Origin: an uncultured Planctomycetaceae bacterium
GTDB taxonomy: Bacteria > Planctomycetota > Phycisphaerae > SM23-33
Direction: 5' to 3'
Length of the DNA stretch: 64,000 nt
Assembly: GCA_964417755.1 (NCBI GenBank)
Contig: CAYQJH010000002.1
Span: 2,693 to 66,692, forward strand
The notes beneath the pieces are model-generated. The model searched no databases and was not told where the DNA came from. It saw only the letters and a list, made by a program, of their open reading frames with translations. Below, piece after piece: positions 95-61,614 of this stretch (positions are counted from its first letter, which is position 1; each line of letters opens with the position of its first letter). The translations under genes and the position numbers were made by a program.

Positions 95-1123
95 CTAATA
101 CAGCCCCGCTGTCTCATCGAGGCCGAACATCAGGTTCATATTCTGCACCGCCTGGCCGGATGCGCCCTTGATTAGATTGTCGATGGCGGCGAAGACGACC
201 ACCCGGCCTTTGGTTACGCGGACGGCCAGGTCGCAGAAGTTCGTGTATGCCACGTACTTCGTCGCCGGCAGCACGTCGGTGCGGACGCGGACGAATGGCT
301 TGTCCGCATAGGCGTCCTGCAGAACCTTGGTCAGGCTTTCGGTCGTCACTTCGCGCGTGGGCTTGGCATAGATGCTCGAGAGGATTCCGCGGTCCATCGG
401 GCAAAGGTGCGGCTGGAAGAGCACGTCAACCTCTTTGCCGCTGATGGCCTTGAGATTCTGCTCGATCTCGGGCATGTGGCGGTGCGAGCCGACGCCGTAA
501 GGCTCGAAGTTCTCGTTCCGCTCGGGGTAGTGGAACTTCAGGCTGGGCGTGCGGCCGGCCCCGCTGACGCCGCTGATGGAATTGCAGATAATGCCCGTCG
601 GCTCGATGAACCCGCCGAGCAGCAGGGGGGCCAGTGCCAGCGTCGCACTGGTGGGGTAGCAGCCGGGATTGGCGATAAGCCCCGCTGACTTGATCTGCGG
701 TGCGAAGTACTCCGGCAGGCCATAGACAGCCTCCGACAGGCCCTTGGCGTCCATGTGCGGGCAGTACCATTTTTCGTAGACCGCGGCGTCCTTCAGGCGG
801 TAGTCCGCAGACCAGTCGATGCAGCGGATGCCATTGGCGCGAAGCTTGGGGACATAGTCCATCGCCACCTTGTGCGGCACGCAGAGCATGGCCAGCTCGG
901 CGCCGCTGGCGACGACCTTGTCAACGTCGAAGAGTTCCTGGCTAAGCAGCACCTGCTTGGACAGCAGCGGGTAGAACTGCTCCATCGGGCCAAGTTCCTT
1001 CTCCGGGCCGTAAACGCCCACAAGCTGCGCATTGGGATGACGCAGCAGGATACGGATGACCTCAAACCCGGCATAGCCGCTGCCGCCGATCAGTACGACC
1101 TTCACTTTGCGTGTACTGCACAT
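95..1123 (-). CDS. argC: N-acetyl-gamma-glutamyl-phosphate reductase
   Basis: 342 aa. N-terminal GGSGYAG Rossmann motif and catalytic-Cys motif NPGCYPT typical of ArgC. Confidence 0.9.
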   Translation of the reverse strand: MCSTRKVKVVLIGGSGYAGFEVIRILLRHPNAQLVGVYGPEKELGPMEQFYPLLSKQVLLSQELFDVDKVVASGAELAMLCVPHKVAMDYVPKLRANGIRCIDWSADYRLKDAAVYEKWYCPHMDAKGLSEAVYGLPEYFAPQIKSAGLIANPGCYPTSATLALAPLLLGGFIEPTGIICNSISGVSGAGRTPSLKFHYPERNENFEPYGVGSHRHMPEIEQNLKAISGKEVDVLFQPHLCPMDRGILSSIYAKPTREVTTESLTKVLQDAYADKPFVRVRTDVLPATKYVAYTNFCDLAVRVTKGRVVVFAAIDNLIKGASGQAVQNMNLMFGLDETAGLY

Positions 1124-2944: not shown

Positions 2945-3290
2945 ACAGGCTAGAGGCTACAGACTTCAGGCTACAGGAGCGGCAACGATAACGGCAGGCT
3001 CCGGGCTTCGGGCTTCAGGCGCGGCAACAACAACAACGGCAACAACGGCAACGGCAATGACGGCCGAACAGCAAAACAACAAAACGGCAACGGCTGCAGG
3101 CGGGACGCCTGCACCACAAGAACGGCAACGGCAACAGCAACGCAACAGCAAGAAGGCCTGCGGAGCCATGGCGATAGCAGACAATGGCTGGCAATGATTT
3201 GTCAATAGCTTCTCTTTGCGTTCTCTGTGGCTCTGTGAGTCTGTGGCTCTGTGGCTCTGTAGTTCTGTGCTCAGCTGTTCTGAGACTCAG
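2945..3290. repeat. Complex repeat-rich divergent intergenic region: C-family element (GGCTACAGACTTCAGG...), (GGCAAC/AACGGC)n hexamer tracts, and 8-mer (GCTCTGTG)n tandem
   Basis: Direct reading. Hexamer tracts span about 3010-3178 and five or more 8-mer copies sit at 3216-3262. Related copies at 32547-32637 and 47120-47212. Confidence 0.7.
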
Positions 3291-3336
3291 CGGCGGATGT
3301 TTGTGTTATAATGCCAGCGTTGTCACGAGGAACATC

Positions 3337-4302
3337 ATGAGAACTATCATCATCGGCGGCAGCGGGCATATCGGCAGCTATCTCGTGCCGATGCTCCTGG
3401 AGGCTGGCCATCACGTCATCAATGTCAGTCGCCAGACGTCCCGTCCTTACCGTGCGGCTGCAATGTGGCGCGAGGTAGAGTCCATCGTCCTGGACCGCCG
3501 CAGCGAGGACCAGGCTGGCACGTTTGGCCGGACTATTGCCAAGCTCCAGGCTGATATCGTCATCGATAATATTTGTTTCACGCCGGAAAGTTGCCGGCTG
3601 ATCGTGGAGGCGCTGGCTGGGAGTGTGCGGCATTTCCTGATGACCGGCACCGTCTGGGTGCACGGCCCGGCGGAGTCCATCCCTACGAAAGAAGATGCCG
3701 TCCGCAAGCCCATCGGCGAGTACGGAATCAATAAGAACGCCATCGAGCAGTACCTGATAGACTTCTCCTGCCGCACGGGCTTCCCAGCCACGGTGCTTCA
3801 TCCTGGGCACATCGTCGGGCCGGGCTGGGTGTGCATCAATCCGCAGGGCGGCGCGAACCTGGAGGTCTTCCAGACCATTGCCGGCGGCAGGGAACTGACG
3901 TTGCCCAACTTCGGCCTGGAGACGCTGCACCACGTGCATGCCGAGGATGTTGCGCAAGGCTTCATTAAGGCCATCCAGCGGCCTAGCGCTTCCATTGGTG
4001 AATCGTTCCACGTGGTCTCGGAGGCAGCACTGACGCTTCGCGGCTATGCGGAGGCTGCCTATCGCTGGTTTGGCCACCAGCCGCGACTGAGGTTCATGCC
4101 GGCAGGCGAACTGGCGAAGCTGCTTACAGAGACAGACGCGACCGACATGATGGAACACATCAGCCGAAGCCCGTGTGCCAGCATCGAAAAGGCCCGCCGC
4201 CTGCTGGACTACCAGCCCAGGCACACTTCTCTTCAGGCCTGCCGCGAGGCGGTGGCCTGGATGATTCAGCACGGAAAGATTCGTGGGCAGATGGTGGATT
4301 AG
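3337..4302 (+). CDS. NAD-dependent epimerase/dehydratase (SDR family)
   Basis: ATG at 3337 gives MRTIIIGGSGHIGSYLV, a Rossmann GxxGxxG start. The ORF 5' extension runs through the tandem-repeat region and is not coding. Confidence 0.75.
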   Translation: MRTIIIGGSGHIGSYLVPMLLEAGHHVINVSRQTSRPYRAAAMWREVESIVLDRRSEDQAGTFGRTIAKLQADIVIDNICFTPESCRLIVEALAGSVRHFLMTGTVWVHGPAESIPTKEDAVRKPIGEYGINKNAIEQYLIDFSCRTGFPATVLHPGHIVGPGWVCINPQGGANLEVFQTIAGGRELTLPNFGLETLHHVHAEDVAQGFIKAIQRPSASIGESFHVVSEAALTLRGYAEAAYRWFGHQPRLRFMPAGELAKLLTETDATDMMEHISRSPCASIEKARRLLDYQPRHTSLQACREAVAWMIQHGKIRGQMVD

Positions 4303-4329
4303 ACATTTGAGCGGTACCACCGAGAATTG

Positions 4330-4432
4330 GTGCCACCCCCAAGCGCCGTTGCCGTTTGCTTGGGGATATTGGCCAAATCAGGCGAACACCCCAAGAGTAC
4401 TTGGGGGTGGCACCACTGATAACGTACTTGGG
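4330..4432. repeat. Inverted repeat / structured element (GGTGCCACCCCCAAG ... CTTGGGGGTGGCACC plus a third degenerate arm)
   Basis: 15-nt perfectly complementary arms at 4337-4351 and 4403-4417. The spacer contains CCCCAAG / CTTGGGG sub-repeats. Confidence 0.6.
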
Positions 4433-4484
4433 AGTGGCACCCATATGGAGTCCGAACAGTAACGGAACATAAGGTTGATTTGAC

Positions 4485-7214
4485 TTGGATTCTTTCACGC
4501 TGAACAAGATCGAGTTCAATGAGCTTCGCCGCATCCTGAGCGGCTATTGCAGTTGTTCATTGGGCAAAGACCTGGCCGTCCGCATCGGCCCCAGCCGCAA
4601 CCCCACTATCATCAAAAAGTGGCTGGGCCAGGTCAGCCAGATGGTCTATGCGATCCGCGACAACGGCCTGCCGCCTTTTGGCGGCGTGAGCGACATCGCC
4701 GGTCCGATGGAGCGCGCCAGGCCCGGCGGCGGGGCCATCGGCGACGATTATGCCACTATCGCCGCCTGCCTTGAGGGGGCCGACAACGTCAAGGCGTACC
4801 TCGGAAAGCTGGACGAGCAATTCGACCTGCTGCACGAATTGATATCGGGCATCGCCGACTTCAGCGAAGAACTGACAGCCATCTGGGCCATCATCGGCCC
4901 TGATGGCTTGGTTCTCGATTCCGCCTCGGTTCGCCTGGCGGAGCTTCGCTCGAGGATCCAGTCCACCGCCCGGCAGATTCACGACGTGATCTACGGCTAT
5001 CTCCGCGACAGCGAGGTTTCCCGGCTATTGCAGAACGCGACCGTCACGCTTCACGGCGACCGCTACGTGCTGCCGGTCAAGCAGGAGAACCGCGGGCGAT
5101 TGCCCGGCGTGGTGCATCGCGAGTCGAACACGGGCGCAACGGTTTTCGTCGAGCCAAACCAGTGCGTCGAGCTCAACAACCTGCTGAGCGACCTGTACGA
5201 GGACGAACGCAACGAGGTCCGCCGCCTGCTGAACACACTGGCCATCCGCATCACTGCCAAGGCCGCGGAGATCGAATCGACGCTGAGGGTTCTGGCACAG
5301 GTGGATTTGATCTCGGCCAAGGCCCAGTACGCCTATCAGAACCAGATGGTCTGCCCGGAGATCCTCGAGCGCGGAGCGCTGCAATTGGTGCAGGCTCGCC
5401 ACCCGCTGCTGATAGATCAGGCCGTCGAACAACGGCGCGCAGGCCAGGCGCCTGCACCGCAAAACAGCCAGCCGGCACGCGAGGTCGTGCCGATCGACGT
5501 CCGGCTGGGCCAGGACTTCGACCTGCTGGTGATAACCGGCTCAAACACCGGCGGCAAGACGGTTGCCCTGAAGACGGTGGCGATGCTGGTGCTCATGGCG
5601 CAGTCGGGCATGCACATCCCAGCGCAGCGGGGCTCGAGCGTGCCGGTGTTCCACGACGTGTTCATCGACATCGGCGACGAACAGTCGCTGCAGCAGTCGC
5701 TCAGCACGTTCGGGGCGCATATCAAGCGGGTGAAGTACATCCTGAGCAAGGCCGACCGCAACAGCATGGTCCTGCTGGATGAACTGGGCAGCGGCACCGA
5801 TCCCGACGAGGGTGGCGCCATCGGCCAGGCGATTTTGGACGAACTTCGCCGCATCGGCTGCCTGGGCATGGTAACCACGCACCTGAGCATACTGAAGGCC
5901 TACGCCTTCAGCAACGAGCGGGTCGATAACGCCTCGGTGGAATTCGACACCGCGACGCTAAGTCCTACTTATCATCTAACCATCGGCCGGCCCGGCGAGA
6001 GCCACGCCATCACGGTTGCCCAGAAGCTGGGCCTGCCCAAGCGAATTGTCAGCGCAGCAAGGGGGCACCTGGGCTCAGCCGGCAAGCAGTTCCGCCGGGC
6101 GATCAGCGCCACCAATGCGGTGCGGGCATCCGCGGAGGTCGCAAGGGCTGAAGCGCAGGCGGCGGCTGTCCAGGCCCGCAGCCAGCAGGAAGTATACGAG
6201 GCCAAGCTGGCTGACCTGCACCGCTTGCAGGAGGAGTTTGAGACGTGGCTGGCGAGGCTAGGGGAGATGAAGAGCGGCGAGGCGATCTTCGTGCCGTCGC
6301 TCAAGAAGACCGGCCACCTGGTGCGGCTGGAACTGCACAGGCAGATTGCGCTGGTCGATGCGGACAACGTGCAGGTGGAAGTGCCACTTTCGGAATTGAT
6401 GCCCAGCTTGGGGCAGGATGCCGTCCGCGAGCAGATCGCCTCGCTGCGCCAGCAGATCATGCAGCAGGCCAAGGCCAGCCAGGAGGCATCTGAGGCAGCC
6501 CGGCGGACGCAGGAGCAGTACCATCGCAGCCTGCAGCAGCAGAAGGAGCGGGCGCGGCAGTTCGACCACTGGCTAGGCGCGATAGCGCGGATGAAGGTGG
6601 GCGACGAGATCACGATCTCGTGCCGGCCCGGCAGGGGCACGCTCACGAAGGTGGACCTGCCCGGCCTGCGGGCCAGCGTCAAGGCAGGCCAGCAGGAGAT
6701 GGAATTGCCGCTATCGGAGCTTTTCCCGCAGACCGGGCCATTCGCCCGCCTGAGCAGCACGGGGGCTGAAGTTGCCCGTCATGACCACGGGCGGCATGGC
6801 CAGCAGCAAGTCGGCCAGCCCCGGCAGGGGCAAGGCGTCTATCGAGATCATTATCAGCGGCCGCACTCGGCTGGGGAAATGCGGCAAAGTCAAAGTGTTC
6901 AAGAAGAGCCTGTCGAAGTAGTGGACAATCGCCCGATGCATCGCCGCAGTGGCCAGTCGCGCGCCGCCCAAGACAACAAAGCAGCCCTGCTAGGCATCGA
7001 GCCCGGCCAGCAGGTCTTCGTCGTGCCGTTCAACAAGCGGGCAACGCTGATTCGCATCCTGGCTGAAAAAGGCCAAGCTATCGTGCAAAGCGGGATCTTC
7101 GAGATGCAGTTGCCGCTGGCTGATCTTGAGCCGATCCGCGAGCCGCCGCCGCAGCAGAAAAAGCACAAGCCCAGCAAGCCGCCCAAGGCTCAAGGCCAAT
7201 CGCAGGAAATCTGA
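4485..7214 (+). CDS. mutS2: Endonuclease MutS2-like ATPase, Smr-less, with three C-terminal KOW-like modules
   Basis: MutS family Walker A LVITGSNTGGKTVALKT and MutS2-type N-terminal region. TTG start. The C-terminus has three repeats of the pattern Gx(I/V)xVxxxxxxGxLxxxxxxxxAxVxxGxxExxLPLS(E/D)LxP and no recognisable Smr motifs. Confidence 0.75.
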   Translation: MDSFTLNKIEFNELRRILSGYCSCSLGKDLAVRIGPSRNPTIIKKWLGQVSQMVYAIRDNGLPPFGGVSDIAGPMERARPGGGAIGDDYATIAACLEGADNVKAYLGKLDEQFDLLHELISGIADFSEELTAIWAIIGPDGLVLDSASVRLAELRSRIQSTARQIHDVIYGYLRDSEVSRLLQNATVTLHGDRYVLPVKQENRGRLPGVVHRESNTGATVFVEPNQCVELNNLLSDLYEDERNEVRRLLNTLAIRITAKAAEIESTLRVLAQVDLISAKAQYAYQNQMVCPEILERGALQLVQARHPLLIDQAVEQRRAGQAPAPQNSQPAREVVPIDVRLGQDFDLLVITGSNTGGKTVALKTVAMLVLMAQSGMHIPAQRGSSVPVFHDVFIDIGDEQSLQQSLSTFGAHIKRVKYILSKADRNSMVLLDELGSGTDPDEGGAIGQAILDELRRIGCLGMVTTHLSILKAYAFSNERVDNASVEFDTATLSPTYHLTIGRPGESHAITVAQKLGLPKRIVSAARGHLGSAGKQFRRAISATNAVRASAEVARAEAQAAAVQARSQQEVYEAKLADLHRLQEEFETWLARLGEMKSGEAIFVPSLKKTGHLVRLELHRQIALVDADNVQVEVPLSELMPSLGQDAVREQIASLRQQIMQQAKASQEASEAARRTQEQYHRSLQQQKERARQFDHWLGAIARMKVGDEITISCRPGRGTLTKVDLPGLRASVKAGQQEMELPLSELFPQTGPFARLSSTGAEVARHDHGRHGQQQVGQPRQGQGVYRDHYQRPHSAGEMRQSQSVQEEPVEVVDNRPMHRRSGQSRAAQDNKAALLGIEPGQQVFVVPFNKRATLIRILAEKGQAIVQSGIFEMQLPLADLEPIREPPPQQKKHKPSKPPKAQGQSQEI

Positions 7215-7372
7215 GTTACGCGATTGTGAGGCACAGCCTCCCGGGCTGTGCAATGCCATGGCGGACCGACAAAAAACAGCATGCCCGAGGGCGGGCTTCG
7301 CCTGAAGATACTGACAATGCCAACAGCATGCAGGCGAGACGCCTGCACCACAAAACAGCGACCGCCGTTCGA

Positions 7373-10327: not shown

Positions 10328-10981
10328 ATGGGCCTGAAACCTTCTCCACTTGGGCCGCAAATACTTGCTCTCAGCCTGGCCATCCTTGCAGTGGCGATCT
10401 GCATATTGCCGGCGGGCTGTGATCGCGGCGGCAATAATGATGATCAAAACGGGTCGGCGGCGGGCGTCTCAGGTGTCACCACCAAGCCGACCACGGCGAC
10501 CACCCAGGCAGGCAGGGCACTTGATGTCGATGCGCTTCTGGCAAAGGCCCTGCCTAACCTTGATGATGAAGCCAAGCCGCTTTCCCGCTACATGGGCGGC
10601 GGCGGGCTGATGCTGATGTTCGTGGATACCTCCTGCCCGTTCTGCGCCGCGGCAATGAAGGAAATGCCTGTGGTCGCGCAGGTTCTGGAGGAGCAGAAAA
10701 TCGCGGCTGTCATCATAAACAATGATGACTCAAGAGAGCGCGTGAAGGCCTTCTACGCCAAGAACCAGCCGGCGACGAAGGTGGTTTACGATTCTGGTCC
10801 CGCCACGCGTGAAGCATGGAATGTCAATGCGGTTCCGACGGTTATCTACATCACGCCGGGCAGGAACATCAGCTACCAGGGCAAGGCACTCTGGGCTGAC
10901 ATGGGCCTGGCTATCGAGAAATCGCTTTCCCTACCGGCTGGCAGCATCAAGTTCACCTCCGGCGGCACGAGCTATGGCTGA
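10328..10981 (+). CDS. Thioredoxin-fold (TlpA/redoxin-like) lipoprotein
   Basis: Lipobox LPAGC and a CPFC CxxC motif in a thioredoxin-like context. Confidence 0.65.
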   Translation: MGLKPSPLGPQILALSLAILAVAICILPAGCDRGGNNDDQNGSAAGVSGVTTKPTTATTQAGRALDVDALLAKALPNLDDEAKPLSRYMGGGGLMLMFVDTSCPFCAAAMKEMPVVAQVLEEQKIAAVIINNDDSRERVKAFYAKNQPATKVVYDSGPATREAWNVNAVPTVIYITPGRNISYQGKALWADMGLAIEKSLSLPAGSIKFTSGGTSYG

Positions 10982-22183: not shown

Positions 22184-22469
22184 GCCGTGCTAAGCGGGGC
22201 GCTAGCGGTGCCCTGACGGCCGAAAGGCCTGACCCGCAATCCGCTACAGCGGGGCTGAACGGTCCGCCGAGGGCCGCTGTTTGCAGGTTCCCTCGTCATG
22301 CGGGCGGTGTTGAAGGTTGGGTCCTCTGCAACGTTACGCCGTGAACCTGGTCAGGTCCGGAAGGAAGCAGCCATAAGCGACTTGTAACGTGTGCCGGAGG
22401 GTCACCTGGCTGGAGCCGTCTTCATGGCGATCCCTGTGAGCACGCGATTCGAAGCGGATCTGCACGGCT
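22184..22469 (+). ncRNA. ffs: Signal recognition particle RNA, long (Alu-domain, Bacillus-type) form
   Basis: Universal helix-8 sequence CCTGGTCAGGTCCGGAAGGAAGCAGCCATAAG at about 22345-22378. A 5' GCCGTGCTAAGCGGGG...GGTGCCCTG...CAATCCGCTACAGC Alu-like region. The 3' CGATTCGAAGCGGATCTGCACGGC pairs with the 5' GCCGTGC. A U-rich tract follows. Confidence 0.75.
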
Positions 22470-22522
22470 TTTCTTCACTCACGCACCAGAGTCCGACTTA
22501 CCGCGAACCAAAGGGGCCAATC

Positions 22523-24019
22523 ATGAACAGGCCGTTTACTCGGATGTATCTTCTGTCCATAGTTCTGGTCTGCGTACAAGCAGCCGATGCTGCCTCGCCG
22601 GCGACCGCAGCCGCCCCCACGGGCAGTCAATCGGCACAGACCGTCTACCCGACGCTGGAGGAGGCCGCCATCGCCGCCTGGCAATTCAGTGATCCTGATT
22701 TGCCTGCCGAATATTATGTCCACGGTCCGACAGAGGGCATGTTTGATCGGCCTGCGACTCTGAAGTTGATGAAGTCCAACGCATACGAGATATACAAGAC
22801 GCACGCCGATCTCAACGGCGACGGGGTTGACGAGGTGCTGATGGCCAATGGCCACTTCGTGAACAAGACTGGCAGAGAGTCGAGCTTCGATGGCGCTCAG
22901 AATCGCACTTGGGCAGTCCTTCAGAACACCCGGGGAGGTTGGCTTATCGTCGGAGCTGGTTTCGGTTCTCCCTGTCCGCCGGAGGTGCTCAAGGAATTAA
23001 CCAACGGCTGGAAGAACATTCGGAGCGGGCACCACCTGAGCGCCAGCAGTGGTGCCACATATCTATATGAATTCAATGGAATTCGATACAAACTGGTCAA
23101 GGAAACCGAGTATGGCCATTTGCCTACACGTCCTACCACCGGCCCTGCAACGCAGACGAGTAGTTCCCCAGCGAGCGTGCGATGGTCAAATGCCACAAAT
23201 GGCCTGAGGGCTCGAATTGAGGCAGGGCCATATCTTGCAAAGAGGTTGGGCAACCGAGTCGACGTGTATTTCGAGAACGTTTCTGATGAACCTTTTAGCC
23301 TTGATTTCGGCGAACTACAGGCGCTGTCATGGGCGGTCTTCGATGCCACAGGAAAGGACGTCAAACCCATAGCTGTGCAAAAGGCCGAGGCAGTCCCTGA
23401 CTGGCATTCGATTGCGCCCGGCCAGCAACTCGGTATGGTCCTGGGCAAGTCGGTGCAAAACCGCGACGGTCGCCTGCAGATCGGCGTCCACGAATGGAAA
23501 CTCCAGCCGGGCCGATATTCGATCCATTGCATGTTGGAGCTGCGATCAGACGCAGCGTCGAGGCCGGCTGGGCAAACACCGTGGAGCGGCCGGGTGGAAC
23601 TGCCGCCTGCGGAGTTTGAGGTCGTGGGGGAAGTCAGCGACGAGAACTTGATTGAAGCTGGTGAGCAAGTCCGCGCCGCCCATCCTGCCGGCGGTCTGGC
23701 CATGTGGCAGGCCCTGGCGGAACTGGTGCGTCCCGGCATGACGGTGCGGCAGATGTTCTTGGTTCTGCCAGCAAAGAAGATGACGCTGGAGGAAATGGGA
23801 GGGGCAGGCATCCTTTGGATGGGCGGCATCTTCTCGCTCAACTATCGGGTTGACGCTCTATGGTGCGTTGAAGCTGTCGGCGTGGGAGAAACTTCGGCCG
23901 GTTTGACCAACCCGTCCACGCAATCCCAGGCCATTGGCTTCGAGAATATGATCTTGACCCGTAAACCAGCAATAAAACCGGCGAAGGCTTCCATCGTTCC
24001 CGCCACGCAACCTGGCTAA
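22523..24019 (+). CDS. Secreted hypothetical protein
   Basis: ATG at 22523 gives a signal peptide MNRPFTRMYLLSIVLVCVQAADA. The upstream part of the track ORF overlaps the SRP RNA and is not coding. Confidence 0.55.
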   Translation: MNRPFTRMYLLSIVLVCVQAADAASPATAAAPTGSQSAQTVYPTLEEAAIAAWQFSDPDLPAEYYVHGPTEGMFDRPATLKLMKSNAYEIYKTHADLNGDGVDEVLMANGHFVNKTGRESSFDGAQNRTWAVLQNTRGGWLIVGAGFGSPCPPEVLKELTNGWKNIRSGHHLSASSGATYLYEFNGIRYKLVKETEYGHLPTRPTTGPATQTSSSPASVRWSNATNGLRARIEAGPYLAKRLGNRVDVYFENVSDEPFSLDFGELQALSWAVFDATGKDVKPIAVQKAEAVPDWHSIAPGQQLGMVLGKSVQNRDGRLQIGVHEWKLQPGRYSIHCMLELRSDAASRPAGQTPWSGRVELPPAEFEVVGEVSDENLIEAGEQVRAAHPAGGLAMWQALAELVRPGMTVRQMFLVLPAKKMTLEEMGGAGILWMGGIFSLNYRVDALWCVEAVGVGETSAGLTNPSTQSQAIGFENMILTRKPAIKPAKASIVPATQPG

Positions 24020-29782: not shown

Positions 29783-29895
29783 GTGTCGCGGGCGTCTCGC
29801 CCGCGTGTACCGAGGGCATCCTGCCCTCGCTGCCTCCGACAATCCGCAGGCAAGACGCCTGCGGCACACGCGGGCAAGATGCCTGCGACACATGA
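29783..29895. repeat. A-family composite hairpin repeat (TGTCGCGGGCGTCTCGCCCGCG / GTACCGAGGGCATCCTGCCCTCG / CGGGCAAGATGCCCGCGACAC modules)
   Basis: Lies between pilB and pilT inside the pilus operon. More than 12 related copies across the window. Confidence 0.8.
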
Positions 29896-33862: not shown

Positions 33863-34034
33863 GCAGTACTTTGGAGTGCGGCGGCATAGACGCCGCTTTT
33901 GCCTCAAGTGCCGCTGGGCTTAACCTTCTGCCGTCCCACGTCAGTCAAAGCGGTGCCGCCGCCCTTCGGGCTCTGTCACCGCACTCCAAGGCCCATGATT
34001 GCTTCATCCAAGCCCAGGCGGTAGAATTTCCGCC

Positions 34035-35510
34035 ATGCATCAGCTTCTGCAAAAACTGAATGCGTTCCAGCCGGTACGCGTTGCCTTGGTGGGCGACTTC
34101 ATCCTCGACCGCTATGTCTATGGCGACGTCGAGCGGATCAACCAGGAGGCGCCCGTGCCGGTTCTGCAGATCGTCCGCAGCGCCAGCAGTGTTGGTGGGG
34201 CGGGCAACGTGGCGGCGGCTGTGCCGGCCCTTGACTCGAAGGTCTCCTGCCTGGGCGTCATCGGCTATGACGCCGGCGGAGAGGAACTTAGGCAATTGCT
34301 TGTTGCCGCCGGCGCTGATACGTCGTCGCTGCTGGCCCTGAGAGATCGGCCCACGTCGATCAAGACGCGGTTCGTCGGCCTGGCGCAGCATCGCCATCCG
34401 CAGCAGATGCTCCGCGTGGATCACGAGAATTCGCACGTGCTGGATGCCGCGACGCAGACGCAGCTGCGGCTGGCCTTCGGAAACCTGCTGGCCGGCAGCG
34501 ATATCGTCGTTTTGGAAGACTACAACAAGGGCGTCCTGAGCGACGCCAACACGCCGCACCTGATCGCCGACGCGACGGCCGCCGGCAAGAAGGTCATGGT
34601 CGATCCCGCCTTGGTGAGTGACTACTCGCGATATCGCGGCTGCACGGTTATCAAGCCCAACCGCTACGAGGCTGCCCTGGCCAGCGGAATCAAGATCACG
34701 GATGATGCCTCGCTGGAGGCCGCCGCCCGCAGGATTATCAATATCACAGCCTGCCAGGCCGTCGTCATCTCGCTCGACAAGGAAGGCATGTACCTCTGCA
34801 TCGCCGATGGCAAGGCTGCCCGCATTCCGCATCGCCGGCCTCGCAATGTTTACGATGTAACCGGCGCGGGCGATGAGACGCTTGCGGTGCTGGCGGTGGC
34901 GCTGGCGCAAGGCTGCGATTACCAGCAGGCGGTGGAGTTGTCCAACGTGGCCGGCGGGCTGGAGGTCGAGCGATTCGGCTTTGTGCCTGTTACACGCGCG
35001 GAGATGGCGGCGGAGATAGAAATAATGGTGGGCCTGCGAAGCGCCAAGGTGGTGGATCGCTTCACGCTGGCGCAGGAGCTGCGCCGCAGGCGCGGGCAGG
35101 GGCAGGCGATTGTCTTCACCAACGGCTGTTTCGATCTCTTGCACATGGGGCACGTTCGATATCTCAAGCAGGCACGCGAAATGGGCGACTGCCTCGTGGT
35201 TGCGATCAACTCCGACGCCAGTGTCAGCCGGCTGAAGGGTCCTTCGCGCCCGGTGATATCGCAGCAGGAGCGGGCGGAGATGCTCGGCTCGCTGGAATGC
35301 GTGGATTATGTAACCGTCTTCGACGAGGACACGCCGATTCCACTGCTGGAGATGTTCCGCCCGGACGTGCTGGCCAAGGGCGGCACCACGCCGGTTGTTG
35401 TCGGCAGGGAAATGGTGGAAGCTTACGGCGGCAAGGTGATGACGCTGGACAAGGTTGATGGCCTGAGCACCACGCAGATCATCGAGCGGATAGCTGGCGG
35501 CGGGCAATGA
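34035..35510 (+). CDS. hldE: Bifunctional D-beta-D-heptose 7-phosphate kinase / heptose 1-phosphate adenylyltransferase
   Basis: N-terminal PfkB-type kinase domain. C-terminal cytidylyltransferase motif [13 protein letters not shown]. Confidence 0.85.
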
Positions 35511-35561
35511 TGAACGACAGAATCCGAATGCCGAATCAATGACGAAATCAGAATGACGAAT

Positions 35562-36140
35562 ATGGCAACCAAGGCTGTGTTTGTCGACCGCGATCACACG
35601 TTGATCGACGACCCGGGCTATCTCGATAACCCGGACCTGGTGAAACTGCTTCCGGGCGTCGGCGGCGCACTGAAGGCCTTGTCGACAGCTGGGTACAAGA
35701 TCGTAATGGTTACAAACCAGTCCGGCATCGCCAGGGGGCTTCTCACCGAGCAGACGCTGGCGAAGATTCACGAGGAGCTTGGGCGGCAACTGGCTGAGCA
35801 TGGCGCCAGCCTGGACGCCATATATTATTGTCCGTTCCACCCGGAAGGCTCGATCCCGCGATACGCGATGGAGTCGGATCTCCGCAAGCCCAAACCTGGA
35901 ATGCTGTTGCAGGCAGCCAAGGATATGGCCATTGATCTGCCCGCAAGCTGGATGGTTGGCGACGGCGCCCGCGACATCGAGGCGGGCCAGCGGGCCGGCT
36001 GCAGGACTATTCGCCTGCGCCATCCCCAGGCGGACGCGGACTTGCGATGCGAAGATGAGGATGTTCAGGCCGATTTTACCGTTAGGAATCTGGCTGAGGC
36101 GGCCAAGATCATCCTTCGCGAAGACGTGGGACTTCATTAA
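35562..36140 (+). CDS. gmhB: D,D-heptose 1,7-bisphosphate phosphatase (HAD family)
   Basis: FVDRDHTL (DxDxT HAD motif I) and GmhB-like length. Confidence 0.8.
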   Translation: MATKAVFVDRDHTLIDDPGYLDNPDLVKLLPGVGGALKALSTAGYKIVMVTNQSGIARGLLTEQTLAKIHEELGRQLAEHGASLDAIYYCPFHPEGSIPRYAMESDLRKPKPGMLLQAAKDMAIDLPASWMVGDGARDIEAGQRAGCRTIRLRHPQADADLRCEDEDVQADFTVRNLAEAAKIILREDVGLH

Positions 36141-37761: not shown

Positions 37762-38493
37762 TCAGGCCAGGCGGCAGCCGGCAGCCTCGAAGGCCTCCTT
37801 CGCCAGGCGTACATGCTCATCAGTAGCGCCGTCTTTGACCATCGCCGACATGAACCGCCGCAGGCTCTTTGCCTGTTTGACTTGCCGATTGAACCTGGGG
37901 CGATGCAGGCGCTCAAGGTCGATCAACGCCACGCCCGCACCCTTGCCGTTCTGCCCAAAGACGTGTCTTGGCAGCAGGTCAGGCCAGCACCAGCCGGCCT
38001 GAAACACCTTCACCATCGCGCCGGCCAGCTTCCGCAGCACATCCTTTATTAACGGCTGTTGAGCATCGGCAAGAAGCTCATTCAGAGGCGTTCCCTCTAC
38101 CGGCAGGGCCACCATTACGCCCTGCGTGGGCAGATTCAGAAAATGTCGCTGGCCGAAGGCAATGACCTCCGCAACGCCAATGCCGAAGCCGGCCACAACC
38201 TGCATGGCTGCATGTTCCTTGTGGATCATCGAACATGGCCGCCGGCCGGCAAGCATGTCACGAAGCATCTCGGTCCGCTCGGTGGCCAGGGCCTTCTTGA
38301 CGAAGACCATCTGGCCGCACGGCAGGACCGTGCTGCGCGTTTCACTTCTGCCGGCGTGCCAACTGAGGCATTGGCCGCCATCGAATCGCATCAGGTCTTC
38401 GAACGAGGCCAGGCCCGAAGCATTCAGACGCTGGCCCCAGCCCTCGGCTATCTCCAGGTGCAGGTTACTTTCAGTTTTCAAATCGCTCACCAC
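37762..38493 (-). CDS. Lipopolysaccharide kinase (Kdo/WaaP/InaA-like) family protein, divergent
   Basis: Protein-kinase-like fold remnants (ALIDLERLH, DLLPRHVF). Small size and motif spacing resemble Kdo/WaaP kinases. The assignment is tentative. Confidence 0.45.
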   Translation of the reverse strand: MVSDLKTESNLHLEIAEGWGQRLNASGLASFEDLMRFDGGQCLSWHAGRSETRSTVLPCGQMVFVKKALATERTEMLRDMLAGRRPCSMIHKEHAAMQVVAGFGIGVAEVIAFGQRHFLNLPTQGVMVALPVEGTPLNELLADAQQPLIKDVLRKLAGAMVKVFQAGWCWPDLLPRHVFGQNGKGAGVALIDLERLHRPRFNRQVKQAKSLRRFMSAMVKDGATDEHVRLAKEAFEAAGCRLA

Positions 38494-40138
38494 TGACTAC
38501 ATAGACAATGAACGCCCTGCCCGCAGCCGCTTCGGCAGAGCCTGTCCGCTTAAGTTTGGAAGCAACCGGGGTAGTGGATTTTGTCTTACCCATCGCAAAG
38601 AACGCGCCCAAGTCGGAAACCGCATAGGCCTTGTCCGCTCCTCCGCCATCAACCATCGCGTCGATCTTGCCCGCGACGAACTGCACCAGTCTTCCATCTT
38701 CGCTTATGACCGGCCCAGCCGCCTCGCCCGGCAGCGTCCTGAGCGTCGGGGTGATCGTGATTGCGGAATCACTGGCCAGGACCCGGCTGGAGCGGGTCTG
38801 CATGCCGCCCATTTCCTCGATGACCGGCGCGCTGTAGAGCGTGACGCTCTTGCCGGACAGCTCCGGCCCCTGGCCCTGCTCAAGCGGCGTGAATGCATAG
38901 CCCGGTACACTGATGACGGCCAGCGGCAGGTTGGCGGGCTTTCCGGGCACCGGCTTGACGACCGCACCGGCGATCGTCTTGTCATTGATTCTTACAAAGA
39001 TGTCGGCTGCGTCTGTCAGCGGCTTGCCGTCGAATTCCAGGTTGTCCACCAGCAACAGCGTGTCGGATATCGGTACCGCGACAGCCTGGCGGAAGACGAG
39101 GCGGTCGAACGTCGGCAGCGGCAAGGCATCATCTCGATGGGACCATCCCTTGCCAGCCGCGGAGGGCTTCTGACCCATCAACGGCATCGACCAGTTGAAT
39201 GATCGCGCAGCCGTCGTGCCGCTGAGATTGTTTGAAGTATCCTCGTATTGCCCCAGCAGGTCTTGTGCTTCCAGAAGGGCCGGCTGTTTTATCGATGCGC
39301 CGGGGGCCTTGGCAATGGCCCTCTTTAGCAGCATGAATGCCTCGAGCGAATCGCTTCGCATGCGGAGGAAGTCGCTGGCGGGAGTCACAGCCTCCAGGCC
39401 CTTGTTCTGGGCCAGCAGAACCAGCGCCTTGGCCTGAGCGAAGGCCGGCACCTGGGGGCACTTGCGAGCGCAGTTCTGCAACGACATCTGGGCGCCTGTG
39501 AGGTTATCGCCCTCGAGTTCCGCAATCCCGATCAGGAACTCCCGCAGCAGGGGATCTTGCCAGGTTGCAGCCGCTTCTCGGAGCTTGGCATACAGGGCCG
39601 GCCCCTTCGCATTCTTGTTCTTGCGGAGCAAGTCACTGGCCTCCGTGAGCAACTCCTGATATCGCGTCCGCCGCGCAACAAACTCCTTGGGCGAAAGCCA
39701 ATCAACGCCAATCTTCCGCTTCTTATCATGGACGGCGGCGCGCCACTTCTCGATGTCCTGCCGGAGGTTGACTGATTCGCTGCCGGGCAACGTGCTGCCG
39801 AGCCGGCGCATCAGCAGGAAGGCCATGCTCTCAGGCTCCGTCAGGGCCTCGATGTTGATGGCTCCGCCGCCGGAGGATGAAAGGCTTACCGGCCGGCTGC
39901 TGGCCACCGGCGACGCCGGAGAGGTGCTTGATGGGCCATAGCGGACATAAACCACGTCGGCGGCACTGAACTCGGTGGTCTTGCCGGCTTTCTCCAGGAA
40001 ATACTTATCGTCCTTGAGCGTAACCGTCCCTTCGTGCTTGGACTCGTCGCGAAGGTACAGCGTGTCAGCGATGGATGAGCCGGCAGAGGCCATCACGACA
40101 ACGCCGGCCAGGAGCGTCAGGCCCAGGATTCGCTTCAT
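38471..40138 (-). CDS. Secreted hypothetical protein with TPR-like middle region and degenerate trypsin-like C-terminal domain
   Basis: Signal peptide MKRILGLTLLAGVVVMASAGSSIA. C-terminal GEAAGPVI sits where GDSGGP would be expected. 23-nt overlap with the downstream kinase-like gene. Confidence 0.55.
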   Translation of the reverse strand: MKRILGLTLLAGVVVMASAGSSIADTLYLRDESKHEGTVTLKDDKYFLEKAGKTTEFSAADVVYVRYGPSSTSPASPVASSRPVSLSSSGGGAINIEALTEPESMAFLLMRRLGSTLPGSESVNLRQDIEKWRAAVHDKKRKIGVDWLSPKEFVARRTRYQELLTEASDLLRKNKNAKGPALYAKLREAAATWQDPLLREFLIGIAELEGDNLTGAQMSLQNCARKCPQVPAFAQAKALVLLAQNKGLEAVTPASDFLRMRSDSLEAFMLLKRAIAKAPGASIKQPALLEAQDLLGQYEDTSNNLSGTTAARSFNWSMPLMGQKPSAAGKGWSHRDDALPLPTFDRLVFRQAVAVPISDTLLLVDNLEFDGKPLTDAADIFVRINDKTIAGAVVKPVPGKPANLPLAVISVPGYAFTPLEQGQGPELSGKSVTLYSAPVIEEMGGMQTRSSRVLASDSAITITPTLRTLPGEAAGPVISEDGRLVQFVAGKIDAMVDGGGADKAYAVSDLGAFFAMGKTKSTTPVASKLKRTGSAEAAAGRAFIVYVVSGERFEN

Positions 40139-40752: not shown

Positions 40753-40910
40753 TGTCGCGGGCGTCTCGCCCGCGTGTACCGAGGGCATCCTGCCCTCGCG
40801 TTTCTCAACGAACCGCAGGCCAGACGCCTGCGGCGCGTGGGCAAGCTCGTGCTACGTAGCGAGCCACTTCGCGGAGTAGCAATGCCCGCGAAATGTAGCA
40901 GCCCGCGGGA
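40753..40910. repeat. A-family composite repeat, long copy including the GCTACGTAGCGAGC hairpin module
   Basis: Nearly identical over ~70 nt to the 29783 copy. Confidence 0.8.
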
Positions 40911-46778: not shown

Positions 46779-46832
46779 CTGTCGCGGGCGAGACGCCCGC
46801 GGTACGCGCGGGCGAGATGCCCGCGACACAGG
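46779..46832. repeat. A-family repeat in the thrS 5' leader
   Basis: TGTCGCGGGCGAGACGCCCGCGGTACGCGCGGGCGAGATGCCCGCGACAC. Confidence 0.75.
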
Positions 46833-50268: not shown

Positions 50269-50599
50269 GGCCGCCGTTCCATCGATAACGAAGCTCAAGC
50301 GTAGAATGAATGAGGCAGGCGAATCAGGCCGATAAGAGTCTGTAAGGCTTGCCGTTAGTGAGAGCCAAATGCAAAGGCGGAATATGTTTGCCAGAAAATC
50401 GTCGTCTCGGGCATCTTCGGTTCGCCGGGCGCGAAGGCGCCCGCGAGGAGCGTCGTTCGCGCAAGCGCTATGGAGAAAGCTGCCTCGAACCGATAAAATA
50501 GAGGACTGTGGGAAAGAACCCCGCAACCCAGCAAGGTAAGGGCGGGCTGCACACGGTTAGTGCGTGGCGCCGGCCTGGCTCCAAAGAGGTGCGAGCAGA

Positions 50600-52282
50600 A
50601 TGAGACCCCGTCAAGTATCTTCATCGATGTTCATATGTCTAGCCGCATTGGCCATCACGTTGCCGGCCTACGCGCAGGTGCAGCAGTTGCAGGTCGGGCA
50701 GAGCCTGGACGCCAACTACCAGGTCGGCAGCGGAGGATACAACACGGTTACCGGCGGCGTAGGCGGGGTCAACAGCCAACTCTACGTTAACGGCCAGGTG
50801 ACGGGCCTGGGCAGCTTCCACGGCCGTCGAAACGCCGTCGCCGACCAGCTTCAAACAAATGTGCCTACTAACGGCCTTAGCACGTTTCAACAGCAATCGG
50901 TCGGCATGAACGATGCGATTAATAGAAGCACTTATCAGGCTGCTCCGTATTATTCTCCTTCGGCGTCGGTGAGCAATATCCGGTCTTCCGTGGCGTCGGG
51001 CGCAGGCGGCCTGCCGGGGGGCGGCTTTGCACCCAGCCGATACATCGAGAGTTCTGTCGGTCGGCAATTGTTCATCGATGCTACGGCGGATTATCGCCCG
51101 CTCATGTCGCCATCCGGCTCGGGGGCAACAGCCAGCCCGATGGTTTCCTCATCCGACAATGTCTATCTGCCGGCTGTTCCGACTTCGCCGCAGCGAATCG
51201 AGAACTTGCGGCCTGGCGCATCGGCCCTGTTCAACTCTCCGGTGGCGGCCAGCCGAGACGACCTTGCCCGTGAGCTGCGGGAAATTGATAGTCGGATAGA
51301 TAACCGCCTGGACGGGCTTGTCTCGGCGAAAGTGGAACAAGACGCCGATCCGAACAAGCTGACCGGCAGGAATGACTTGATCACGAGCGGCACGTTTGAA
51401 AAGGAAGCAAAGCCAAAGGACATGCAGCTTACGCGAACGCCGCCAGCCCCCATTCAGCCGGACAAGCCCGACGTGCCACCTAAGAAGGAAGTACCGGTTA
51501 TCTCCGCCAACCAGGATATCTTCGTGGACATGCTCGTCGCGCTGCGTCAGGCCAAGACAGGGCCTGGCTCGGCGGCCCCAACAGCGGCATCGCCGCTGGA
51601 ATCGCCGGCGGCTGATTTGAGGCTCGCGGGCACGGCGTCGTCGCTGAAGCGCCCTGGAGCTTGGAAAGCTCAGGAGCAGCCCGCTCTGCCCAGGCCGGAG
51701 CTTTTCACCTACGGGCCGGCGCAGGGCAAGGCCCGCGTGGAGTATGTGCAGGGCAAGGGCATAGTGATTCACGGCCTGGCAGGCCAGAGCAGCGACCTGT
51801 TCAACGGACAGATGGCCAAGGCTGAAGAAAACCTCAAGAAGGGCGAGTTTTACGATGCCGCATCGCAGTTTCACACGGCGGCTGTGCTCAGTCCGGGCAA
51901 TCCGCTGGCGTGGGTGGGGCAGGGCCTGGCGCTGTTCATGGCGCACGAGCCTTCCAGTGCCGCCTTGAGCTTCCAGCATGCAATGCAGGCATTCCCGCCG
52001 CTGATGGAGACGCGGCTGGATGTGGCGTCAATCATCGACATCGATAAGTTCAAGACGCAGTTGTCGATGCTCGACCAGCGGCTGGACAGAGAGGCCTGGG
52101 AGAATGACGCTCCGATGGCCTACCTTGCCGCCTACCTGCACTACTGCGTTGGCGAGGATGATGTCGCCAAGAACTATGCCCGCCTTCTGAAAGTCAAGGG
52201 CATCAAGGCGCCGGTGATGGAGTCCTTCGTCGAGTTCATGCTCTCAGGCAACAAGCCCGCCAGCCAGTCTGCAAAGCAATAA
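50600..52282 (+). CDS. Secreted protein with C-terminal TPR-like region
   Basis: Signal peptide ...MFICLAALAITLPAYAQ. TPR-like helices near the C-terminus. Confidence 0.55.
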   Translation: MRPRQVSSSMFICLAALAITLPAYAQVQQLQVGQSLDANYQVGSGGYNTVTGGVGGVNSQLYVNGQVTGLGSFHGRRNAVADQLQTNVPTNGLSTFQQQSVGMNDAINRSTYQAAPYYSPSASVSNIRSSVASGAGGLPGGGFAPSRYIESSVGRQLFIDATADYRPLMSPSGSGATASPMVSSSDNVYLPAVPTSPQRIENLRPGASALFNSPVAASRDDLARELREIDSRIDNRLDGLVSAKVEQDADPNKLTGRNDLITSGTFEKEAKPKDMQLTRTPPAPIQPDKPDVPPKKEVPVISANQDIFVDMLVALRQAKTGPGSAAPTAASPLESPAADLRLAGTASSLKRPGAWKAQEQPALPRPELFTYGPAQGKARVEYVQGKGIVIHGLAGQSSDLFNGQMAKAEENLKKGEFYDAASQFHTAAVLSPGNPLAWVGQGLALFMAHEPSSAALSFQHAMQAFPPLMETRLDVASIIDIDKFKTQLSMLDQRLDREAWENDAPMAYLAAYLHYCVGEDDVAKNYARLLKVKGIKAPVMESFVEFMLSGNKPASQSAKQ

Positions 52283-57702: not shown

Positions 57703-57862
57703 GCAGTTTTGTGGTGCAGGCGTCTCGCCATCGTGTACCGAGGGCATTGCTACTGTGCGAAGTAGCTTCGCTACGTAGCACGAGCTTGCTCTCGCGATTT
57801 ACGAGCAGAACCGCAGGCGAGACGCCTGCGACACACGCGGGCAAGATGCCCGCGACACATAA
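57703..57862. repeat. A-family composite repeat
   Basis: GTGGTGCAGGCGTCTCGCC...GCTACGTAGCACGAGC...GCAGGCGAGACGCCTGCGACACACGCGGGCAAGATGCCCGCGACAC. Confidence 0.8.
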
Positions 57863-58932: not shown

Positions 58933-59092
58933 ACTGTGGTGCAGGCATTGTGGCGCAGGCATTGTGGTGCAGGCGTCTCGCCTGAATTGTGGTGCAGGCG
59001 TCTCGCCTGCATCTCGGATCACTTCGTGTTGGAAGGCCCCCACCAGAATGTGGGGAATCCCGCGTGCTTCCGCAGGGGGCTTCCTATCTGGT
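58933..59092. repeat. Tandem 14-mer (TGTGGTGCAGGCAT)n, A-family hairpins and a B-family copy
   Basis: TGTGGTGCAGGCATTGTGGCGCAGGCATTGTGGTGCAGGCGTCTCGCCTGAATTGTGGTGCAGGCGTCTCGCCTGCA, then GGGGAATCCCGCGTGCTTCCGCAGGGGGCTTCC. Confidence 0.75.
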
Positions 59093-61376: not shown

Positions 61377-61470
61377 GGCGTTGAACAAATGGGGATACGT
61401 TTCACTCGATAATTGGATTACACTGGCAGCACGCGCAATTATGCCTCGCGGTCATCTTGCCGGCATGTGC

Positions 61471-61545
61471 CAGACGTCTGGCCTGCGTATACGAGGGCAG
61501 GATGCCCTCGGTACACGCGGGCGAGACGCCCGCGACACATAAAAC
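61471..61545. repeat. A-family repeat
   Basis: CGTATACGAGGGCAGGATGCCCTCGGTACACGCGGGCGAGACGCCCGCGACAC. Confidence 0.8.
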
Positions 61546-61614
61546 AGCCAAGTTGCGATGTGACACTAGCCGATTAGTTTGAAGTCGCGCGCAAGTTCAA
61601 GGGTGAGCACTGAA

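Follow-up and report, generated by a model that had tools for sequence, protein, structure and literature searches.

The 64-kb stretch of planctomycete DNA analysed here (the window) contains an open reading frame that raises the question of whether a MutS2 protein has dispensed with its C-terminal Smr domain, and what a protein carrying three KOW-like modules behind its ATPase might do. The first-pass annotation had described this frame as a MutS2 gene without Smr, with a triplicated KOW-like module in its place. The frame was found exactly as described, encoding 909 amino acids (aa) between a TTG start and a TGA stop at positions 7212-7214 (Table 1), and since the N-terminus MDSFTLNKIEF is kept across homologues, the TTG start is correct. 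The TIGR01069 mutS2 equivalog model gave 674.3 bits at a cutoff of 400, and MutS1 models reached 131-152 bits, far under their cutoffs of 480-642. B. subtilis MutS2 (8qpp_W, 7qv3), whose structure has been determined on collided disomes, matched with 393-396 bits and 35% identity across aa 5-580, corresponding to its own residues 5-563, and MutS2 structures were the best Foldseek matches. The lever and clamp are present, including the clamp motif DRYVLPVK...GATVFVEP within the alignment of the N-terminal region to B. subtilis MutS2, with AF2 pLDDT values mostly >90 over aa 1-347, and neither MutS_I nor MutS_II was found in a Pfam scan of the whole protein. The MutS-type ATPase motifs are intact, comprising Walker A GSNTGGKT (352-359), the signature SLSTF (405-409), Walker B LLDE (430-433) and TTH (464-466), and their residues are invariant in the 51 homologues compared. 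Two of them, G357 and E433, align with G340 and E416 of B. subtilis MutS2, whose mutation abolishes ribosome splitting (PMC10897456). By its core the protein therefore belongs to the MutS2 lineage, as had been proposed, but it does not have the canonical Smr-bearing architecture, and because Smr is absent the name 'endonuclease' is unwarranted for it.

Table 1. Features of the mutS2-type gene, in window coordinates
Feature	Position	Strand	Basis
mutS2-type gene, complete	4485..7214	+	ORF list, TIGR01069, B. subtilis MutS2 match, Foldseek
N-terminal core/lever and clamp (aa 1-347), without MutS domain I or II	4485..5525	+	B. subtilis MutS2 residues 5-330, Pfam, AF2
MutS domain V ABC ATPase (aa 348-528)	5526..6068	+	Pfam MutS_V, E = 1e-35
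Single long alpha-helix joining ATPase to R1 (aa 519-592)	6039..6260	+	AF2 secondary structure
Module R1 (aa 595-645), SH3-like barrel	6267..6419	+	Pfam MSSS, AF2 strands at 600-634
Alpha-helix of 58 aa (aa 644-701), conserved, rich in Q/A/R/E and constant in length	6414..6587	+	AF2 helix
Module R2 (aa 703-753), SH3-like barrel, most divergent copy	6591..6743	+	Homology to R1, local module HMM, AF2 strands at 708-742
Disordered low-complexity linker, variable length (aa 755-825)	6747..6959	+	pLDDT <50 over 755-816
Module R3 (aa 838-888), best-conserved barrel	6996..7148	+	Pfam MSSS 42.3 bits alone; loop V867-Q-S-G-I-F-E873 kept
Disordered P/Q/K-rich C-terminal tail (aa 889-909), without Smr	7149..7211	+	pLDDT <50 over 888-909; Pfam and local HMM

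Two other identities were considered and rejected. KamC, the reactivase ATPase of lysine 5,6-aminomutase (NF052383), which is likewise MutS2-like without Smr, scored 187.9 bits at a cutoff of 300 and is further disfavoured by the lack of aminomutase (kam) genes among the neighbours scanned, and an anti-phage defence ATPase obtained no match in PADLOC. Upstream of the gene lies an epimerase and downstream an aminotransferase in convergent orientation, while a 73%-identical homologue in another locus (L001) has different neighbours. No conserved operon or neighbourhood was found; the neighbours are housekeeping genes that vary between relatives, and the gene context thus gives no functional hint. 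A 15-mer repeat upstream of the gene was discarded as a conserved regulatory element, since relatives do not conserve it.

The C-terminal Smr domain (PF01713) expected of MutS2 is missing. A scan with profiles for the Smr, KOW and MutS domains matched MutS_V and MSSS and neither Smr nor KOW, with no Pfam Smr match at E<=10 in the whole protein or in its C-terminal 164 aa. Likewise, a local HMM built from MutS2-attached Smr domains found nothing in the six frames of the whole window (best E = 0.48) and no Smr-like sequence in the surroundings of mutS2 in 16 planctomycete loci (~20 kb per locus, ~300 kb together). In positive controls the local HMM scored 105-116 bits on Firmicutes control loci, and Pfam Smr scored 83-101 bits on canonical Firmicutes MutS2. 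The lack of Smr in the protein, as originally claimed, is thus borne out against controls of 83-116 bits, and for a separately encoded Smr protein the answer is negative within the window and the related loci. The contrast that had been drawn with the nuclease-bearing form is weaker than it seemed, since the Smr domain of B. subtilis MutS2 aids recruitment to collided ribosomes without cleaving mRNA and a deltaSMR mutant is partly active (PMC10897456). The loss of Smr is likely to have altered recruitment rather than removed an essential cleavage step.

Behind the ATPase, the protein continues in the order helix, R1, helix, R2, flexible linker and R3. The spacer that separates the PGES motif from the first barrel measures ~90 aa, whereas for canonical MutS2 the median is 154. 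The three modules of ~50 aa each can be mutually aligned without gaps, and Smith-Waterman comparisons gave scores of 87, 63 and 57 relative to shuffle means of ~21-22 (z = 17.1, 9.6 and 8.0, the highest for R1 with R2), scores that none of 2000 shuffles reached. Since the modules are only 42-52% identical in DNA (ungapped) and ~25-35% in protein, and Tandem Repeats Finder called nothing inside the gene, they are old duplications and not assembly copies, which the first-pass annotation had named as a possible refutation. In addition, many residues are invariant in all three modules in the homologue alignment, which points to purifying selection.

With respect to the nature of the modules, Pfam MSSS (PF20297) matched the whole protein in two stretches, R1 being one of them, with 58.6 bits at a gathering score of 26.8. 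When the modules were scanned singly, R3 was recognized, R1 fell just under the gathering score with 26.3 bits, and R2 gave no match; R2 is nevertheless counted as an MSSS module because of its homology to R1 and its 79 bits with a local module HMM. In Pfam, PF20297 is the 'MutS2 and Smr-associated SH3 domain', and papers on ribosome rescue refer to the same domain as KOW. No Pfam KOW family matched the whole protein or any single module at E<=10. The modules form a five-stranded SH3-like barrel superimposable on the KOW domains of NusG/Spt5, in a structural comparison in which Tudor and other SH3-like barrels score as well as KOW domains. The three repeats that had been called KOW-like are therefore real and KOW-like in fold only, while their sequence is that of MSSS.

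The linkers between the modules had been described as low-complexity, which holds for the one between R2 and R3 (Q11 R10 G8 S7 V7 H6 of 71 residues; pLDDT ~33-50), whose length differs among homologues. Apart from this linker, the only low-complexity stretch is the C-terminal tail. The R1-R2 linker, in contrast, is predicted to be an alpha-helix, and almost every homologue listed has R1 and R2 spaced 108 aa apart. Between this helix and the one ahead of R1 there is a weak similarity in register (z = 2.8, 18/1000 shuffles), a faint hint that the duplication giving rise to R2 may have taken the preceding helix along. Two short motifs are conserved, LFPQTGPFA (aa 746-754) following R2, with residues at least 90% conserved, and a DRPMxRR-type motif (aa 815-821) in the R2-R3 linker, in which P817 is invariant and R820 at least 90% conserved.

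All of the 120 closest homologues, from Phycisphaerae/Planctomycetota MAGs, have the same three-module layout; the assemblies that include JAKJER010000003.1 and CAYRVX010000027.1 are examples of carriers of the three-module gene. On a tree of the core domains, in which two key clades have moderate bootstrap values of 66/100 and 78/100, the Smr-less MutS2 proteins fall essentially into one large clade, assigned to Planctomycetota wherever named, which contains one-, two- and three-module forms. Most of its members have a single module and end 0-5 residues past it, a form carried for instance by Planctopirus and Gemmata (Gemmata algarum JC673), and R1 is the counterpart of the first module in two-module relatives. 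The loss of Smr is both older and wider than the triplication, and the idea that the three modules stand 'instead' of Smr, correct in that both features are real, overstates the tie between the two changes. The following order of events would account for these forms: Smr was lost from a canonical MutS2 (~700-aa forms), the coiled-coil spacer was shortened (~640-aa forms), an R3-like second barrel was added, and R1 was then duplicated to give R2. In the literature searched, neither an Smr-less or multi-KOW bacterial MutS2 nor the MSSS domain is described, and only plant MutS2A surfaced. The architecture is a conserved, undescribed variant of a known protein, MutS2.

The most probable reading, to which we assign a probability of about 0.55, is that the Phycisphaerae MutS2 acts as a homodimeric ABC-ATPase clamp that splits stalled or collided ribosomes with ATP and without a nuclease. 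In B. subtilis MutS2 the KOW domain binds uS10 and the ATPase is essential (PMC10897456). The R3 loop V867-Q-S-G-I-F-E873 aligns with the uS10-contact loop of this protein, such that Q668, I671 and L672, three of the four residues changed in the B. subtilis KOW-mut with weaker ribosome binding (PMC10897456), are matched by Q868, I871 and F872, all of them conserved. From this conserved loop we infer that R3 may bind uS10. The fourth contact residue, K673, is replaced by an invariant glutamate, E873, and the ribosome interface may accordingly be a different one. R1 and R2 have no loop of the uS10 type, with DADNVQ standing at this place in R1. R3, on its long flexible tether, would thus dock on uS10 like the single KOW domain of B. 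subtilis MutS2, while R1 and R2, on rigid helical spacers, might provide extra contacts to a neighbouring ribosome or a partner protein. These contacts could stand in for the recruitment and collision recognition that Smr performs at the disome interface in Bacillus, and hydrolysis of ATP by the conserved ATPase would then separate the ribosomal subunits. RqcH, the downstream partner of MutS2 in Bacillus, has been reported in only 7 of 211 genomes of the PVC group. In Zavarzinella formosa RqcH is absent and mutS2 was scored positive. A MutS2-RqcH pathway may therefore not exist in these bacteria, which speaks against the ribosome-splitting reading. None of the 30 larger ORFs of the window that were scanned encodes RqcH/NFACT, a result that says little given that the window spans only 64 kb.

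A clearly less probable, although possible, reading is that the protein is a clamp on DNA junctions, which would bind D-loops or Holliday junctions and whose influence on recombination would be limited to binding or ATP-driven remodelling, with the SH3-like modules binding DNA or recruiting repair partners. MutS2 of Thermus and Helicobacter does act on DNA recombination intermediates, binding and cleaving branched DNA, but its anti-recombination activity has been ascribed to the Smr nuclease (PMC11275761), which is missing here; moreover, the uS10-contact loop of the Bacillus protein is retained in R3, and there are no DNA-repair genes among the neighbours. Roles on the ribosome and on DNA are not mutually exclusive. 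Similarly tentative is an extension of the ribosome-splitting reading, according to which the three barrels constitute a sensor that replaces Smr by a division of labour, with collision recognition achieved by multivalent KOW contacts alone. R3 would dock on uS10, and R1 and R2, with their fixed spacing of 108 residues, would read a second feature, which could be the neighbouring queued ribosome or a dedicated partner bound via LFPQTGPFA and DRPMxRR. If true, such a sensor would represent a distinct, Smr- and RqcH-independent route of ribosome rescue in a phylum in which RqcH is apparently mostly absent.

It is rather unlikely that Smr is supplied in trans, by a separate KOW-Smr or SmrB-like protein recruited by R1 and R2, so that canonical MutS2 would be rebuilt from two polypeptides. 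Stand-alone Smr and KOW-Smr proteins are known from other phyla (PMC10897456), the uS10-type loop has been lost from R1 and R2 through divergence, and the short conserved sequences behind them, LFPQTGPFA and DRPMxRR, resemble docking sites, but no Smr was detected in any frame of the window or in the 16 planctomycete loci with the HMM derived from MutS2-attached Smr domains only. Finally, an assembly duplication, or a decaying gene with Smr shifted out of frame downstream by a frameshift or truncation, is effectively refuted, since, although low-complexity linkers and repeats are spots where assemblies can fail and one relative (L005) looks frameshifted, the repeats have diverged to the low identities given above, the 120 homologues are independent, come from different datasets and share the three modules with conserved spacing, the six-frame HMM scan found no Smr remnant downstream in any frame, and all three modules retain many invariant residues.

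Work on the rescue of collided ribosomes in bacteria has centred on Smr-domain proteins, namely SmrB and MutS2, and surveys took the Smr domain as their starting point, so that an entire lineage of MutS2 without this domain would escape them. This lineage, in which proteins have one to three KOW/SH3 barrels, amounts to a set of naturally occurring deltaSMR variants and offers material to divide collision recognition between the KOW-uS10 contact and Smr, as well as to study the role of MutS2 in organisms apparently without RqcH. It also presents an annotation problem, as some of its proteins are labelled 'endonuclease MutS2' though they contain no nuclease domain.

Among known systems, the KOW domains of NusG/Spt5 differ from the modules described here in their protein context as well as in sequence, given the lack of any Pfam KOW match. 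Plant plastid MutS2A is likewise a MutS2 homologue without Smr, and it is required to withstand antibiotics that stall ribosomes. Unlike the planctomycete protein, however, it is of cyanobacterial origin, has lost Smr independently and occurs beside an Smr-bearing paralogue, MutS2B; a triplicated KOW/MSSS module has not been reported for it in the literature searched. B. subtilis MutS2 (RqcU; PDB 7qv3, 8qpp/8r55), a collision sensor and splitter, shares with our protein the core/lever, the clamp, the ABC ATPase with its catalytic residues, a helical arm past the ATPase and the SH3/KOW-type MSSS barrel, with R3 keeping the Q-x-G-I-hydrophobic loop. In contrast, it bears Smr and one barrel instead of three, its spacer from the ATPase to the first barrel is ~150 aa compared with ~90 aa, and it lacks the extra 58-aa R1-R2 helix, the long disordered linker before R3 and the glutamate at the position of K673. 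The single-module Smr-less MutS2 proteins of other Planctomycetota (for example Gemmata algarum, Gemmataceae and Phycisphaerales MAGs; ~635-700 aa) belong to the same clade in the core tree, and like our protein they lack Smr and have a spacer of 90 aa and a first module resembling R1. These forms, however, end 0-5 residues after their one barrel, and this barrel keeps the G-hydrophobic loop, which is gone from R1 in the three-module forms.

The single ORF encoding the mutS2-type product uses a TTG start that is correct, since the N-terminus MDSFTLNKIEF is kept in homologues. The product scores 674 bits against TIGR01069, the curated MutS2 equivalog (cutoff 400), and MutS1 and KamC identities were rejected, the ORF lying well under the cutoffs of both models. 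Among solved structures the product is closest to B. subtilis MutS2 bound to collided disomes (7qv3, 8qpp) and to the MutS2 cores of Thermus and Thermotoga. The Walker A (GSNTGGKT), signature (SLSTF) and Walker B (LLDE) motifs are invariant in 51 homologues, and G357 and E433 align to B. subtilis G340 and E416, residues whose mutation abolishes ribosome splitting (PMC10897456). Pfam found two stretches of PF20297, the "MutS2 and Smr-associated SH3 domain" (MSSS, the KOW domain of the ribosome-rescue papers), in the whole protein and neither MutS_I, MutS_II nor Smr, even at E<=10. Pfam Smr was likewise found in none of eight planctomycete proteins, with 83-101 bits in canonical Firmicutes MutS2 as positive control. 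A local Smr HMM built from 101 Smr-bearing representatives gave 105-116 bits on control loci; run over all six frames of the 64-kb window and of 16 planctomycete loci, it found no match (best E = 0.48), so that an out-of-frame Smr remnant downstream of mutS2 was also rejected. Smr is thus truly absent from the 909-aa protein, as the first-pass annotation had claimed.

That annotation had further proposed three related repeats and named assembly duplication as a refuting outcome; the repeats were borne out as three SH3/KOW-like barrels (R1-R3) following the ATPase, and they are not assembly duplicates. Pairwise Smith-Waterman z values against shuffles were 17.1, 9.6 and 8.0 (0 of 2000 shuffles reached the observed scores), DNA identity among the barrels is 42-52%, and Tandem Repeats Finder called no repeat inside the gene; by their sequences, the barrels are ancient duplications. 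Scanned alone against Pfam MSSS, R3 scored 42 bits, R1 26.3 bits (just below the gathering score) and R2 had no match, R2 being identified as a module because of its homology to R1. An AlphaFold2 model built with a 51-sequence alignment (mean pLDDT 75.8) predicts the order ATPase, helix, R1, helix, R2, disorder, short helix, R3 and disordered tail. The earlier wording of Q/R/P-rich linkers therefore holds, by composition, for the R2-R3 linker and the tail and fails for the R1-R2 connector, which the model indicates to be a conserved helix. LFPQTGPFA and DRPMxRR are conserved despite lying in or beside an otherwise variable disordered linker and are candidate docking motifs. The top Foldseek match to the full-length model was PDB 9a5o, an integrative model of the B. 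subtilis YabR-MutS2 complex, hinting at a partner protein that might bear on what the extra barrels bind.

Coordinates of the mutS2-type gene, its predicted layout and other features of the window
Feature	Residues (aa)	Window position	Basis or remark
mutS2-type ORF, 909 aa		4485-7214 (+)	ORF listing
MutS domain V	348-528		Pfam
Single 74-aa helix, ATPase to R1	519-592		AlphaFold2
R1	595-645		gapless alignment with R2, R3
Single 58-aa helix, R1 to R2	644-701		AlphaFold2
R2	703-753		gapless alignment with R1, R3
LFPQTGPFA motif, directly 3' of R2	746-754	6720-6746	highly conserved
Disordered stretch, after R2	755-816		AlphaFold2
(D/N)RPMxRR motif, before R3	815-821	6927-6947	highly conserved
Short helix, just before R3	826-836		AlphaFold2
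R3	838-888		gapless alignment with R1, R2
Disordered C-terminal tail, after R3			AlphaFold2
CTTGGGGGTGGCACC copies		4329-4343 (-), 4400-4414 (+), 4427-4441 (+)	
GC-rich hairpin		7231-7251	
Bacterial large SRP RNA		22185-22467 (+)	Rfam RF01854
REP-like element, copy just downstream of mutS2		7329-7347	
REP-like element, example sites		29787-29887, 40756-40832, 46787-46825, 57715-57854, 58968-59007, 61447-61534	
Large ORFs without Pfam family		54899-57664, 33945-36137, 50564-52282, 38471-40138, 61579-63108	

The B. subtilis MutS2 KOW domain binds uS10 in the fashion of NusG, and mutation of its residues Q668, I671, L672 and K673 weakens ribosome binding (Park et al., PMC10897456). Only R3 aligns to this domain (aa 626-694) in phmmer, with Q868, I871, F872 and E873 at the respective positions. 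Within the clade V867, G870 and E873 of the R3 loop do not vary, and conservation reaches at least 90% at Q868, S869 and F872; the equivalent loop reads DADNVQ in R1 and KAGQQE in R2. Since one-module relatives keep the G-hydrophobic loop in their single barrel and two-module relatives in both of theirs, these sequences suggest that the ancestral role in docking survives in R3, R1 and R2 having diverged once the duplications had taken place.

All of the best 120 database matches (58-99% identity, 830-1040 aa) combine MutS_V and MSSS without Smr and have three modules, and every one with a name is a Phycisphaerae or Planctomycetota MAG. Among the homologues listed, nearly all share an R1-to-R2 spacing of 108 aa; the linker between R2 and R3 varies in length. 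When the 150 best representatives of a 50%-identity library were sorted by local HMMs, 88 had one module plus Smr, 42 one module, five two modules and four three modules, the last three classes without Smr, and no module was detected in 11, of which five carried Smr and six lacked it, many of the latter being fragments. Smr and a multi-module form never occurred in one protein among these representatives, and the Smr-less clusters with a source name were from Planctomycetota. Likewise, all 15 Planctomycetota loci in species-representative genomes lack Smr; three have two modules and four have three, and in Gemmata algarum, other Gemmataceae and some Phycisphaerales the ORF ends 0-5 residues beyond a single module. 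In a neighbour-joining tree built from the core domains, the 69 Smr-less proteins fell within a 70-leaf clade, with the three-module proteins as one nested subclade and the two-module forms scattered; bootstrap values in a 65-taxon subset were moderate (78/100 for the Smr-less split, 66/100 for the three-module clade).

Smr-less one-module proteins form two classes by ATPase-to-first-barrel spacer, one of ~700 aa with a spacer of ~144 aa, near the canonical median of 154, and one of ~640 aa with a spacer of ~90 aa; the 90-aa spacer is shared by all three-module and seven of eight two-module proteins. Two-module relatives have an R1-like first barrel and an R3-like second one, and R2 most resembles R1, down to the end of the helix that precedes it (ETWLARLGEMK versus DHWLGAIARMK), although the similarity between these helices (z = 2.8) is only suggestive. 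The simplest history would be loss of Smr, followed in turn by spacer shortening, gain of an R3-like barrel and duplication of R1 into R2. At one relative's locus (CAZMVY010000202.1, 4452-6515) the planctomycete mutS2 homologue matches query residues 1-817 and its frame stops after 636 aa, probably through a frameshift that reflects either a pseudogene or a sequencing error.

In B. subtilis, MutS2 cannot split ribosomes without its ATPase, and both Smr and KOW help to bring it to collisions; Smr leaves mRNA uncleaved, and activity is partly kept in a deltaSMR mutant (PMC10897456). In plants, tolerance of ribosome-stalling antibiotics depends on MutS2A, another MutS2 without Smr. Because of these precedents, the Smr-less planctomycete MutS2 would be expected to be a competent, nuclease-free ribosome splitter whose extra barrels plausibly make up for the lost Smr contacts, a reading to which we assign a probability of about 0.55. 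It is tempered by the lysine-to-glutamate change at the K673-equivalent position, which may alter the interface, by the barrel fold, which is generic, and by RqcH, which seems uncommon among PVC-group genomes (7 of 211) and is missing from a Gemmataceae genome scoring positive for mutS2. The chief rival to ribosome splitting, a role at DNA junctions without cleavage, is considered unlikely. Still less probable is that a separate protein supplies Smr in trans, against which stands the blank six-frame Smr scan of the window and the 16 planctomycete loci.

The mutS2 gene appears monocistronic, with 183 bp between it and the end of the upstream epimerase gene and with an aminotransferase gene downstream in convergent orientation, neighbours that were not kept at the locus of one 73%-identical homologue. 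The 15-mer CTTGGGGGTGGCACC occurs three times in the 183-bp gap directly upstream, once inverted and twice direct, and could form a stem-loop or operator; the sole further match in the window (10472-10486) has two mismatches, and nine homologous loci lack the 15-mer in their upstream regions. An 8-bp hairpin (GCACAGCC-tcccg-GGCTGTGC) without a T run, 17 nt past the mutS2 stop codon, may be a terminator common to mutS2 and the aminotransferase gene. The epimerase ORF (3184-4302) opens with 51 codons (3184-3336) of non-genic appearance, with 5.9 copies of the 8-bp tandem repeat CTCTGTGG at 3223-3269, and translation probably begins in reality at ATG 3337 (MRTIIIGGSGHIG, Rossmann motif). Outside this locus the window is unremarkable chromosomal DNA, with asd, galK, type IV pilus genes, ThrRS, PriA, a Ser/Thr kinase and an SRP RNA among its contents, and PADLOC gave no match. 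The SRP RNA is a full-length match (157 bits, gathering score 60) and overlaps the 5' end of ORF 22391-24019, a mechanical call without a Pfam match; this ORF therefore probably has a wrong start or is spurious. A REP-like palindrome, GGC[A/G]AGACGCC[C/T]GCG (hairpin type TGCAGGC-gagac-GCCTGCA), is dispersed over the window, with 23 matches at <=2 mismatches versus 1.0 expected from shuffles, many between larger ORFs and often paired or tandem. Several large ORFs (509-921 aa) without a Pfam family at E<=1e-4 encode uncharacterised planctomycete proteins.

In full-text searches of the literature we found no description of a Smr-less bacterial MutS2, a multi-KOW MutS2 or the MSSS domain; the searches brought up plant MutS2A alone. 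Databases already contain hundreds of such Smr-less MutS2 proteins, labelled "MutS2/Smr-associated SH3 domain-containing protein" or "endonuclease MutS2", the latter a misleading name for proteins without Smr. The domain rearrangement is clean, conserved and biologically suggestive, and it belongs to a field that is active at present, but the gene represents no new kind of system.
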